DNA of 26,525 nt from Octopus vulgaris (Eukaryota), in the NCBI GenBank assembly GCA_951406725.2, contig CATOCA020000039.1:1-26525 (forward strand), given 5' to 3'. A program made the position numbers and the translations under genes. Shown piece by piece: positions 1 through 25,261 of the stretch (the stretch's first letter is position 1; every line of letters begins with the position of its first letter). The notes below the pieces were generated by a model that was not told where the DNA came from, made no database searches, and was given only the letters and a program-made list of their open reading frames with translations.

Positions 1-480
1 ACTCAATTTGTACTCCTTGGAACGAAGACGAGAGAGATATGCAGTGATATACATATGGAAAATCCTGGAGGGACTAGCACCAAATTTTGGAATTGAGAGC
101 TGTTCCAATCCCCGTACAGGACGTCACTGTGTGGTGCAAAAGGTCCCGTCTTCCACATCCAGGGTAAGGAGCAGATACTGTAATAGCCTGGGGTTCAGGG
201 GCCCTCAGCTTTTCAACAAACTGCCAAGAAAACTAAGAGATCTACATGATGCGGATGTGGACATTTTCAAAAAACATCTAGACAAGCTGCTTTCCGGGAT
301 CCCAGATGAACCCACTGCAAGGTACGAAGGTAACCTAAGGGCAGCAGCTACAAACTCTCTCTTAGATCAGTGGCCAGCCACGGCAAACTGGACTTAGAGA
401 GGGTAGCAACAAGGGCGGTGCCCCAGCATGGCCTCAGCCGGATGGCTGAAACAAGTAAAAGAGTAAAAGAGTAAAAGAGT
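1..480 (+). mobile_element. 3' end of CR1/L2-group LINE, family B (runs off window start)
   Basis: ORF2 C-terminus ([20 protein letters not shown]...FKKHLDKLL) homologous to the other RT ORFs here; 3'UTR motif GGTGCCCCAGCATGGCC; tail AAGTAAAA(GAGTAAAA)2GAGT joined to (TA)n. Confidence 0.92.
2..397 (+). CDS. C-terminal part of LINE ORF2 (post-RT region), partial
   Basis: Open frame [13 protein letters not shown]...WPATANWT*, collinear with ORF2 C-termini at 5800-6189 and 12599-13030. Confidence 0.85.
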
Positions 481-3400
481 ATATATATATATATATATAT
501 ATATATGTATATATATATATGTATATATATATATGTGTATATATATATATATATATATATATGTATATATATATATGTATATATATATATGTTATATATA
601 TATGTATATATATATATATATATATATATGTATATATATATGTATATATATATGTATATATATATATATATATATATATATGTATATATATATGTATATA
701 TATATATATATATATATATATATATATATGTATATATATATATATGTATATATATATATATATATATATATATATATATATATATGTATATATATATGTA
801 TATGTATATATATATATGTATATATATATGTATATGTATATATATATATATATATATATATATATATATATATATATGTATATATATATGTATATATATA
901 TATATATATATATATATGTATATATATATATGTATATATATATGTATATATATATATGTATATATATATATATATATATATGTATATATATATATGTATA
1001 TATATATGTACATATATATATGTACATATATATATGTACATATATATATGTACATATATGTATGTACATATATATATGTACATATATATATGTACATATA
1101 TATGTACATATATATATGTACATATATATATGTACATATATATATGTACATATATATATGTATATATATATGTATATATATATGTATATATATATGTATA
1201 TATATATGTATATATATATGTATATATATATGTATATATATATGTATATATATATGTATGTATATATGTGTATATATACATGTATATATATATGTATGTA
1301 TATATGTGTATATATATGTATGTATATATGTGTATATACATGTATATATATATATGTATGTGTATATGTGTATGTGTATATGTATATGTATATGTGTATA
1401 TGTATATGTATATATGTATATGTATATGTGTATATGTATATGTATATGTGTATATGTATATATGTATATGTATATATGTATATGTATATATGTATATGTA
1501 TATATGTATATGTATATATGTATATGTATATATGTATATGTATATATGTATATGTATATATGTATATGTATATATGTATATGTATATATGTATATGTATA
1601 TATGTATATGTATATATGTATATGTATATATATATGTATATATATATGTATATATATATGTATATATATATGTATATATATATGTATATATATATGTATA
1701 TATATATGTGTATATATATATGTATATATATATGTATATATATGTATATATATATATGTATATATATATGTATATATATATGTATATATATATGTATATA
1801 TATATGTATATATATGTATGTATGTATATATATATATGTATGTATATATATGTATGTATATATATATATGTATGTATATATATATATGTATATATATATA
1901 TATGTATATATATATATATATATATATATATGTATATATATATATATATATATATATATATATATATATATGTATATATATATGTATATATATATATATA
2001 TATATATATATATATATATATATATATATATGTATATATATGTATATATGTATATATATATATATATATATATATATATATATATATATATATATGTATA
2101 TATATGTATATATGTATATATATATGTATATATATATATATATATATGTATATATATATGTATATATATATGTATATATATATATGTATATATATATATA
2201 TATATATATATATGTATATATATATGTATATATATATGTATATATATATGTATATATATATATGTATATATATATATATATATATATATGTATATATATG
2301 TATATATATATGTATATATATATGTATATATATATATGTATATATATATGTATATATATATATATATATATATATATATATATGTATATATATATATATA
2401 TATATATATATATATATATATATATATATATATGTATATATATATGTATATATATATATATATATATATATATATATATATATATATGTATATATATATA
2501 TATATATATATATATATATATATATATATATATATATATATATATATATATATATATATATGTATATATATATATATATATATATATATATATATATATA
2601 TATATATATATATATATATATATATATATATATATATATATATATATATATATATATATATATGTATATATATATGTATATATATATGTATATATATATG
2701 TATATATATATGTATATATATGTATATATATATGTATATATATATGTATATATATATGTATATATATATGTATATATATATGTATATATATATGTATATA
2801 TATATGTATATATATATGTATATATATATGTATATATATATGTATATATATATGTATATATATATGTATATATATATGTATATATATATATATATATATG
2901 TATATATATATGTATATATATATGTATATATATATGTATATATATATATATATATATGTATATATATATGTATATATATATATATATATATGTATATATA
3001 TATGTATATATATATGTATATATATATGTATATATATATATATATATATATATATATATATATATATGTATATATATATATATATATATATATATATGTA
3101 TATATATATATATATATATATATATATATATATATATATATATATATATATATATATATATATATATATATATATATATATATATGTATATGTATATATA
3201 TATATATGTATATGTATATATATATATATGTATATGTATATATATATATATATATATATATATATATATGTATATATATATATATGTATATATATATATA
3301 TATATATATATATATATATATATATATATATATATATATATATATATATATATATATATGTATATATATATATATATATATATATATATGTATATATATA

Positions 3401-4130
3401 TATATATATATATATATATATGTGTATATATATATATATGTATATATATATATGTATATATATATATGTGTATATATATATATATGTATATATATATATA
3501 TATATATATATATATATATATATGTATATATATATATATATATATATATATATATATATATATATATATATATATGTATATGTATATATATATATATATA
3601 TATATGTATATATATATATATATATGTATATGTATATATATATATATGTATATGTATATATATATATATGTATATATATATATATATATGTATATATATA
3701 TATATATATGTATATGTATATATATATATATGTATATGTGTATATATATATATATGTATATGTATATATATATATATGTATATATATATGTATATGTATA
3801 TGTATATATATATGTATATGTATATGTATATATATATGTATATGTATATGTATATGTATATGTATATATATATGTATATGTATATGTATATATATATGTA
3901 TATGTATATGTATATATATATATGTATATATATATATATATATGTATATATATATGTATATATATATATATATATATATATATATATATATATATATATA
4001 TATATATATATATATATGTATATATATATGTATATATATATATGTATATATATATATGTATATATATATATGTATATATATATATGTATATATATATATA
4101 TGTATATATATATATGTATATATATATATA
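481..4130. repeat. 3.65-kb (TA)n microsatellite with TG interruptions and local higher-order units
   Basis: Direct reading: TATATATATG 10-mers, TATGTACATATA block at ~1007-1150, 16-mer block at ~1450-1620. Confidence 0.99.
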
Positions 4131-22867: not shown

Positions 22868-25098
22868 ACTCTTTTACTTGTTTCAGCCATCCGGCTGAGG
22901 CCATGCTGGGGCACCGCCCTTGTTGCTACCCTCTCTAAGTCCAGTTTGCCGTAGCTGGCCACTGATCTAAGAGAGAGTTTGTAGTTGCTGCCCTTAGGTT
23001 ACCTTCGTACCTTGCAGTGGGTTCATCTGGGATCCCGGAAAGCAGCTTGTCTAGATGTTTTTTGAAAATGTCCACATCCGCATCATGTAGATCTCTTAGT
23101 TTTCTTGGCAGTTTGTTGAAAAGCTGAGGGCCCCTGAACCCCAGGCTATTACAGTATCTGCTCCTTACCCTGGATGTGGAAGACGGGACCTTTGGCACCA
23201 CACAGTGACGTCCTGTACGGGGATTGGAACAGCTCTCAATTCCAAAATTTGGTGCTAGTCCCTCCAGGATTGATTTCGATACTGGGATTTCGATCCCTCC
23301 TGGACCAGTATAGTTGTGTGTGTATATGTGTTTACAGCTTGATATTGTAAGGCTGAAATTTACCAGCATTACAAATTGCTGTTGTTGTCTTCAGCCCATT
23401 TGTATATGGCATCCAGATCTTGTTGTAAAGGTCAGCATCAGCTGGGTTTTTGATTGCCTGTGCTACCTTTGTGTCATCAGCATGGCTAGTGAGGGATGTT
23501 GTTTGTGCTACCAAGGGCATGTCAGAAGGCACAAAAACAGCAAGGGTCCCAAGACTGTGCCCTGTGGCCTTCAGCACTATTGGTGTCTTTCCCGAGAGGG
23601 CTCCATTGGCTGCAACCATCTGGCTTCTGTCCTTCAGGAAGTCATGTATCCACTCACTAGCTTTTCCCATATTGCCTTCCCAGTCTGAGTAATTTGTGAC
23701 ATATCATCCTTGGTCGACTTTGTCAAGGCCTTCTTAAAGTCGAGATATACCACATCCACCTGTGAGCAGTCAAGTGATTGTTTCAGTACCCAGTCGTAGT
23801 GTTGTAACAGCTGCGTAAGGCAGTAACTTCCTGGGCAGAAAGCCATCACTGTGTGTCAGTGAGACGGTTAGTTTCTTCGAGGAAGACGTGATCAGTTTTT
23901 CTGATGATTCGTTCCATGACCTTACTTATGTGTGACGTCAGGGAGACTGGCCTGTAGTTTTTGGCCTCTGCTCTACTCCCTCCTTTGTGGATGGGGCATA
24001 TGGTGCCTTCATGACGCCCTGGGCAGTTTACCGTTGGCAAGGAACACTTTGAAGAGCTTCTAACAGTGGTCCCGCTGAGCATGCCTGCATGTTTTGGAGA
24101 ACTGCTGGAGTCCCATCTGGTCCAGCAGCTGAGTTTTATTCTCATTTCTTCTATGGCAGATATTACATCCCTCTCTGTTATGTCTATGTAATTCAGTGGT
24201 TGTTTGTTTGGTTTGTGGTGTTTGGCATCCAAAGAAAACTTCTGGGTTTTGTGGTTTGCATGGCACTTTGGGGGATGTGAATAAAGCTTTTATACTGTTC
24301 CTTTAGTATTTCACTTATCCCTTGGGGGTCCCTCCAGTTAGAGAGCCCTTTTTATCCAAAGAGTGGGCCAATCTTGCAGTGTACCGAGGTGGTTTCTTTC
24401 TACAAATTTAAAGAAGGCTTTGGGGTTTGTTTTAATATTCTCTATGGCCCTGGCTTCTCTCTCTGCCCTCTACTTCTCATAGGAAAGGTTTGAGTGCAGT
24501 TTCCGTTTTCAAAAAGTTTCAGGTGGAGTCCTCATTGTTTCTCTTGCATTGATTGCTTCAGAGAGCTTCATCTTCACTGTAAGTATTTTCCTGTCTCTGG
24601 GAACATTTGTTCCTTGCCCATGTTTCTCTGAGATTGAGCTGCTGGCATATGTTCTGTATTGTTGTCATGAAATGTTGGAAATGTGTGTTGGTGTCTTGAC
24701 CTTCAGTGATGAGTCTCCAGTCATGTTTTCGGATCTCTTCGTTGATCTTCTTCCAGTTTGCCTTATGGAAGTTTAGACTGGATAGGCCTGTGGTATTTTC
24801 TAATGGCTGCGTCTCAACTAACTCTCTCATACTATATCATTACCTCCCCTAACAGTTGTGAGTCAGAGAGAATTGTTGGTGTTACCATTATGTTGTGGAT
24901 GAGCATCAGGTTGCTTGTGAAACAGAAGACCAAGACATTCTCACCTCTTGTTGTAAAAGCACTGCTTGCTCCATCAGAAAAACTTGCGTGTGAGAGCCAA
25001 CAAGGGCTCTGTCTGTCTCTGTTCAAGTGATGTCATTCCAGGGAGAATGTATCTAATGCATTTGACTTTTCGGAAGGTTAGTCTCCCAGCAGCAGTAG
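22868..25098 (-). mobile_element. 5'-truncated, internally deleted, indel-rich LINE with a family B 3' end
   Basis: 22868-23270 is the reverse complement of ~62-464 with ~3 substitutions; RT remnants (NYRPVSLTSH, VYLDFKKA, HADDT) and APE C-terminal remnants (LLLGD, ILSDS); (TA)n on both sides. Confidence 0.92.
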
Positions 25099-25261
25099 AT
25101 ATATATTTATATATATTCATATATATATATATATATTCATATATATACATATATTATATATATATATATATATATATATATATATATATATATATGTATA
25201 TATATGTATATATATATATATATATATATATATATGTATATATATATATATATATATATAT
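25099..25261. repeat. (TA)n microsatellite
   Basis: Direct reading. Confidence 0.97.

Follow-up and report, generated by a model that had tools for sequence, protein, structure and literature searches.

A strong preference for (TA)n microsatellites in young CR1-group LINE families of Octopus vulgaris

Target-specific long interspersed nuclear elements (LINEs) with an apurinic/apyrimidinic endonuclease (APE) are described from the R1 and Tx1 clades (PMC4640811). Microsatellites are the targets of Waldo, (ACAY)n, Mino, (AC)n, Kibi, (TC)n, Koshi, (TTC)n, and Dong of the R4 clade, (TAA)n; the portions of this source available to us list TA as a target for a rice miniature inverted-repeat transposable element only, not for LINEs (PMC3812793). 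Here, we analysed a stretch of 26,525 nucleotides of Octopus vulgaris DNA (contig CATOCA020000039.1 of assembly GCA_951406725.2, hereafter the window), where five LINE copies are interspersed with TA arrays measuring 0.05 to 3.65 kb. The copies belong to families A and B and to the sister subfamilies C and D.

Like Waldo, Mino, Kibi and Koshi, the octopus families combine an APE endonuclease with a reverse transcriptase (RT), have the microsatellite on both flanks and leave a target duplication that cannot be read. They differ in their (TA)n target, in their CR1-group layout, in the C-terminal zinc knuckle, which was not found, in their occurrence in both orientations, and in showing a preference of ~85% rather than strict specificity. 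Dong, which has a restriction-like endonuclease, is comparable in its microsatellite niche, occupied in the same genome by a Dong-like family, but its repeat is (TAA)n. Target repeat and host genus are shared with the Naiad Penelope-like elements, which prefer (TA)n and are present in Octopus spp. (PMC8557442); however, Naiad has a GIY-YIG endonuclease and a pseudo-long-terminal-repeat structure and is unrelated to the octopus APE LINEs. The CR1 of coscoroba prefers TTCT, matching its own octamer tail (PMC2612034), RTE tails match the first target base (PMC6007223), and tail-matched target biases of 1–4 bases are described in CR1 and RTE (PMC2612034, PMC6007223, PMC13295347). In the octopus families, too, the repeat tail overlaps the first target bases. 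Yet, the microhomology of CR1, L2 and RTE elements covers 1–4 bases, whereas the octopus families have whole arrays on both sides.

A 2026 octopus annotation reported 13 active CR1 families and 787 recent insertions, and its main text and supplement, in the portions available, make no mention of a target preference (PMC13282606). These 13 families probably include A, B and C/D. An unclassified I-group clade is described in O. sinensis (PMC10294476); the available portions of this and five other sources (PMC13343379, PMC11481361, PMC4758252, PMC8967140, PMC3124438) hold no statement on a TA target. Our search found no literature report of TA-targeting CR1-group LINEs, although Repbase Reports, subscription journals and the octopus library lay outside it, so that a note in a database is possible. 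If young CR1-group families whose frames are intact strongly prefer (TA)n, targeting would gain a third origin and a new target.

Junctions with (TA)n in the window and in the genome

The original prediction, made from the window alone, stated that all five 3' tails run directly into (TA)n. This is borne out at 479/480, 6264/6265, 12160–12162, 12509 and 22868. Its further statement, that three 5' ends also lie on TA, holds at 4131/4132, within the second open reading frame (ORF2) of the B copy, and at 7258/7259, where the C copy is cut within a tandem-repeat 5' untranslated region (UTR). The third end, at 25098, is uncorroborated: it adjoins TA in the window, but a copy on C12 of the genome continues for ~520 nt before TA is reached. 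The C12 copy represents the same insertion, with an identical TA interruption pattern and an intact frame, whereas the window copy (copy F) contains 6–13 gaps per ~250 nt across 23370–25098, plus a ~460-nt deletion. A sixth junction had been overlooked: the D copy is full-length, and (TA)n directly adjoins it at its start, 18156. Because a large share of the window is made up of TA arrays, its junctions are weak evidence taken alone, and the claim is carried by genome-wide counts.

For these counts, ~200 nt of the 3' region of each family served as query, which gave 769, 1403 and 440 candidate matches for A, B and D, respectively. The first 30 of the 40 matches listed per family were scored, and long copies were extended to their 5' ends. 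Copies were picked by internal sequence and not by their flanks; the window's own copies and junctions reading N were left out. A junction was counted as TA if (TA)3 or (AT)3 occurred within 20 nt. By this rule, TA was found at 78/88 of the 3' junctions and 69/83 of the 5' junctions of A, B and D, truncated copies included. This amounts to 147/171 junctions against a background of ~6% (5.9% over 200 kb; 6.6% over 400 kb sampled evenly at 40 places), so that the TA bias predicted from the window is present genome-wide at both ends. Per family, TA occurred at 25/30 3' and 23/28 5' junctions in A, at 28/29 and 26/27 in B, and at 25/29 and 20/28 in D, where the unsettled 5' end of one copy (L069) was entered as a miss. 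With a stricter 12-nt rule, applied while three D copies were still to be extended, the 3' and 5' counts were 21/30 and 20/28 for A, 26/29 and 26/27 for B, and 23/29 and 15/26 for D, against a background of 3.9%. Judged by eye, 15/17 full-length D starts other than that of the window lie on TA, after removal of a duplicate of the window locus and of a match situated in an internal repeat.

The arrays on the 3' side are long, with medians of 155 nt in A, 173 nt in B and 108 nt in D against 33–35 nt in the background. At the junction itself, the pure TA run does not clearly exceed the background in length (medians of 13–19 versus 13 nt), and many insertions lie in tracts of < 30 nt. Sites of A, B and D that fall outside TA repeats frequently resemble TA (TACA, TAA) or are plain AT-rich DNA. 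Hence, the TA bias is a strong preference (~85% of ends) and not a strict specificity. We regard the bias itself as very probably real. At some 5' ends (L021, L082, L039, L080), short inverted or duplicated pieces stand between the element and the TA array.

Two other groups of LINEs served as comparison. The L1/Tx1 copies, found by their zf-RVT domain, had TA at 2/25 3' and 0/7 5' junctions, with no tail found in 5/30. Copies of a (TAA)n family that we take to be Dong-like had TA at 0/19 and TAA at 18/19 of their 3' ends, with no tail call in 5/24. The absence of a TA bias in these copies indicates that the bias is element-specific and not a general property of the assembly. A small L1/Tx1-type subfamily (L404, L410) differed from the main L1/Tx1 family in having TA at or near the 3' end in 2/2 copies. 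The Dong-like LINEs in (TAA)n (L412–L435, L102, L105) form head-to-tail arrays at L427–L429.

Several results bear on whether the TA array was there before the insertion. The interruption motifs in the 100 nt on each side of one insertion were concordant, with a cosine of 0.414 versus 0.197 in shuffled pairs (maximum of 0.292 in 5000 shuffles, p 2e-4; 70/79 pairs informative). This concordance was strand-specific, since it fell to 0.21 with one flank reverse-complemented. Furthermore, truncated 5' ends showed AT/TA microhomology of 1.74 nt on average against 0.68 nt expected (n = 38, p 1e-4), and 45% of them versus 13% had at least 2 nt. Such microhomology would be expected if the complementary DNA (cDNA) pairs with upstream TA while joining. 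Both tests are indirect; they support the prediction that the TA is target DNA and more than a tail, and the sequence evidence suggests that TA likely preceded the insertion. At one A insertion, contigs of four public runs did not bridge the site, where the 5' flank is repetitive and the TA stretch was skipped, and no empty allele was seen for A, B or D.

Structure and placement of the elements

Intact copies of ~5.6 kb comprise a long 5' UTR, an ORF1 of ~300 aa and an ORF2 of ~1000 aa (intact frames of 1039–1104 aa). The endonuclease motifs are intact in all three families, with 61–72% identity between families, and the endonuclease and RT domains of the window LINEs were confirmed by Pfam (Exo_endo_phos and RVT_1, above cut-off). 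RT identity to D is 97% in C, 80% in B and 74% in A. C and D are sister subfamilies that differ in their 5' UTRs. A and B have the same 5' UTR start, and C and D have others. The first ~550 nt are near-identical in A (L116, L118, L121) and B (L136, L139), whose RTs are ~25% apart, and the head of the D 5' UTR differs from the A/B head; this suggests swapping of 5' UTRs between families. The heads contain what we presume to be resemblances to YY1 and ETS sites. At the 3' ends, A–D have a common motif and a predicted hairpin before the tail. The repeat tails are family-specific, with units of 8 nt in A, 8 nt in B and 4 nt in C and D, and run on into A, AT or TA where they meet the junction.

Residues 1–69 of ORF1 are Myb/SANT-like by Pfam in 3/3 families, below the cut-off (E 0.01–0.02), and a CCCH finger lies downstream. 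The fold predicted for this N-terminal domain has three helices (predicted local distance difference test of 72–93). This predicted fold matches Myb, GARP and trihelix DNA-binding domains, with a best Z of 7.6 and a root-mean-square deviation of 2.2–2.8 over 56–58 residues; as values of Z < 8 are common for small helical bundles, the Myb-like assignment is weak. Foldseek searches with ORF1 returned nothing at E < 0.001, with TEA and Myb domains in the top rows, and the ESM Atlas gave no usable match. Homologues of ORF1 were 7/7 Octopus proteins. A term search of a survey of ORF1 types found no mention of Myb or CCCH (PMC4120745). Pieces of ORF1 are also annotated within two gene models of Octopus, one adhesion GPCR-like and the other lipin (P0125, P0127), probably as gene-prediction errors and possibly as exonisation.

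In a tree of 139 RTs, without named reference elements, A, B and C/D group with an Argonauta protein in a single cephalopod clade (Shimodaira–Hasegawa-like approximate likelihood ratio test of 98), and the best named ORF2 match is also from Argonauta. The prediction of a TA-targeting lineage that had radiated into several families is upheld as regards the bias and the single clade, while the uniqueness it implied was overstated (see the following section). Families A–D belong to a large clade whose other members are unnamed; separate from it is a group of 61 rows whose motifs we take to be canonical CR1-like. RTE is remote, on a long branch.

Placement in the CR1 group, which comprises CR1, L2, Rex1, Daphne, Crack and Kiri, is based on domain layout and is provisional as regards phylogeny. 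ORF2 has an N-terminal APE endonuclease followed by the RT, and the 3' end has a stem-loop and a short tandem-repeat tail without poly(A). Elements of the CR1 group are not known to carry an RNase H or a C-terminal zinc knuckle. In line with this, Pfam matched neither of them in the intact D ORF2 even with E values up to 3 admitted, and no CCHC pattern was found in the last 200 aa of the A, B and D ORF2. Members of the R1 clade are known for CCHC knuckles in ORF1 and at the end of ORF2. In the octopus families ORF1 has a CCCH finger only and the ORF2 end has no CCHC pattern, which speaks against that clade. The intact D ORF2 also gave no zf-RVT match, a domain present in other LINEs of the genome, which speaks against Tx1/L1. 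Zenon, described as having no ORF1 and a poly(A) tail (PMC13343379), differs from the octopus families, which have an ORF1 of ~300 aa and repeat tails. The vertebrate canonical CR1 has an esterase-type ORF1 (PMC13343379), whereas the octopus ORF1 showed the Myb/SANT and CCCH matches and no esterase match.

Among metagenome contigs with relatives of these elements, 77 contain the reading frame; (TA)4 occurs anywhere behind it in 3 and close behind its end in 1. As many of these contigs stop short, and assemblies of short reads are interrupted at TA, the counts give only a weak hint that the bias is not general.

How the target may be chosen

We consider it probable, at roughly 0.6, that the element's own protein machinery nicks pre-existing TA repeats and primes reverse transcription there. 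The APE endonuclease, as the putative determinant of the site, would nick TA-repeat DNA. The Myb/SANT-like N-terminal domain of the ORF1 protein, a putative DNA-binding domain, might help to reach long arrays, a speculative step that builds on the predicted fold. The RNA repeat tail, continuing with A, AT or TA, would then pair with the freed DNA end and prime synthesis, and the cDNA, complete or cut short, would join the upstream TA via 1–6 matching bases. Insertion in both orientations follows from the self-complementary TA target. Long arrays would be hit repeatedly, building LINE trains such as that of the window. A more far-reaching version seems doubtful to us. In it, a CR1-group lineage of cephalopods would have acquired a Myb/trihelix-like DNA-binding domain for its ORF1 protein and would home on long (TA)n with it, as the first microsatellite-targeting CR1-group lineage; repeated hits would contribute to kilobase TA–LINE trains, and RTE, Penelope-like and another CR1-type lineage would have entered the niche independently.

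Several observations weigh against target choice by the elements themselves. The implied claim that TA preference is unique to this lineage fails, because TA is also favoured by three other families, of which one is CR1-type but distant, one RTE and one Penelope-like. Family E, a CR1-type family outside the A–D clade with an RT 45% identical, has TA at 18/30 and 16/30 junctions. The older RTE family has TA at 11/20 (no tail call in 9/29) and 15/28; itself TA-biased, it was dropped as a negative control. The Penelope-like family, which is young (~99% alike), has TA at 27/29 of the junctions at one end. The TA leaning of these unrelated elements fits a host property of TA DNA, and the unusually long arrays around A, B and D are what a structure- or break-driven model predicts. 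Moreover, a short interspersed nuclear element (SINE) with the tail of family A has TA at only 7/28 and 6/21 junctions, although it is older (94–96% alike). The weakness of the Myb-like assignment counts on the same side, the scored copies were the youngest rather than a random sample, and a survey of 74 copies for paralogous empty sites yielded no clean case in A, B or D. The one clean site concerned family E, within the SINE's internal TA tract (54/68 matches with (TA)3); other rows were discarded as self-matches or as spanning unrelated sequence.

Nevertheless, the preference is graded. Pooled, A, B and D have TA at their 3' junctions more often than E (p 0.002), RTE (p 0.001) and the SINE (p 4e-10), and the long-array bias is seen in A, B and D but not in E or RTE. 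The weaker TA bias of E, without a long-array bias, goes along with an ORF1 (L437:2281-3015) whose recovered part has several CCCH-like fingers and no Myb-like match. This single genome offers a comparison series for target choice, strong in A, B and D, moderate in E and RTE, absent in L1/Tx1 and directed at another repeat in the Dong-like family, which bears on the roles of the endonuclease, the pairing of the RNA tail, a putative ORF1 DNA-binding domain and host DNA structure.

An alternative explanation, unlikely in our view yet the strongest of the rivals, is that lesions made by the host pick the site. Long (TA)n tracts would form hairpins or cruciforms, or be nick-prone and open, and any retroelement with a tail able to pair with AT or TA would prime there, the endonuclease having only a loose preference for TA steps. 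Cleavage of TA cruciforms has been described in yeast and human cells (PMC9890227, PMC12972899), and host-made lesions would account for four distinct TA-leaning lineages in one genome, for the long arrays favoured by A, B and D, and for the finding that every TA-leaning tail continues with A, AT or TA. However, L1/Tx1 elements avoid TA even though their tail also ends in AT, and the Dong-like copies keep to TAA. Likewise, the junction-adjacent pure run hardly exceeds the background, many insertions occupy short tracts, and the endonuclease motifs are conserved.

We find it rather improbable that a short TATA-like site suffices, with the arrays growing later from the duplicated site, or with copies in TA being kept while others were purged. 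Some copies do have just 10–20 nt of TA, or TA on one side, and a duplicated site holding a variant motif could also yield matching flanks; passive accumulation has been proposed for Drosophila Waldo-A/B near CA repeats (PMC3812793). But the scored A, B and D copies are 98.7–99.8% alike, which leaves little time for later change, and copies 99% alike lie within arrays that are hundreds to >1000 nt long and whose shared patterns are complex, while equally young E copies have arrays no longer than background. Retention would further require that selection purged most insertions from a 2.8-Gb genome yet spared L1/Tx1 outside TA. It is very improbable that noisy long reads joined repeats via TA arrays during assembly. 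The window contig is indeed small (26.5 kb) and noisy, duplicates part of C12 and includes one junction that is uncorroborated; yet, the bias recurs at dozens of loci across the large chromosomes, in some of which ordinary sequence lies just past a short tract, and it is family-specific, being absent from L1/Tx1 and Dong-like copies.

The TA preference also explains the LINE trains packed in octopus TA arrays, which bears on assembly and on claims of LINE activity in these animals.

Layout of the window and neighbouring repeats

The window opens with the 3' end of a family A copy (1–479, forward strand), whose start lies past the contig end; it comprises the ORF2 C-terminus, the 3' UTR hairpin and the 8-nt repeat tail, and was 100% identical in 40/40 genome matches listed. 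An interrupted (TA)n array of 3.65 kb (480–4131) separates it from the B copy (4132–6264, forward), which is 5'-truncated within ORF2, retains the RT and ends in an 8-nt repeat tail. After a (TA)n array of 1 kb (6265–7258) follows the C copy (7259–12160, forward), with endonuclease and RT regions carrying a frameshift, a 4-nt repeat tail and a degraded duplication of ~600 nt.

The C and D copies lie tail to tail and have one (TA)n array in common (12161–12509). The D copy (12510–18156, reverse) is full-length at 5.65 kb, with a long 5' UTR and a 4-nt repeat tail; ORF1 (~16441–15545) is frameshifted, and ORF2, with endonuclease and RT at 15716–12599, contains two frameshifts. Its true 5' end directly adjoins (TA)n at 18157–18205. 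Beyond the Penelope-like repeat (18865–22200), with TA at both ends, an interrupted (TA)n array (22201–22868) lies at the tail of copy F (22869–25098, reverse), a family A copy (99% at the 3' end) in noisy sequence, and (TA)n follows its doubtful 5' end (25099–25262).

We presume the repeat at 18865–22200 to be Penelope-like from its features; Pfam gave no match for its ORF. It contains a 2.7-kb inverted duplication (19188–21906, 97%), and the C12 copy has this palindrome as well. Visual inspection suggested a hammerhead-like motif; Rfam, run on 16.4–22.3 kb, gave only sub-threshold microRNA-like matches on repeats and the palindrome, and no hammerhead.

The right part of the window (12531–25098) recurs at C12:46.237-46.251 Mb (L297, L299), 98–100% alike and then noisy, while the left part with A, B and C has no counterpart at that locus; the contig may represent a second haplotype or a chimeric scrap. 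At C12:46.245-46.265 Mb (L299, L300) and C2:193.56-193.63 Mb, copies of A, B, D and the Penelope-like repeat form trains of tens of kb with TA arrays as sole spacers.

The abundant SINE (L262–L290; 18560–18740 in the window) has in common with family A the 3' motif, the 8-nt tail and a hairpin-like inverted repeat. Its internal TA tract receives other elements (L160, L034), and its own flanks are mostly not TA. Beside the TA cluster, L298:1-1150 holds a tandem array with a unit of ~200–350 nt that is apparently SINE-related. At two places (L298 and the 5' flank of L072), TA directly follows a 3' end that we take to be Helitron-like.

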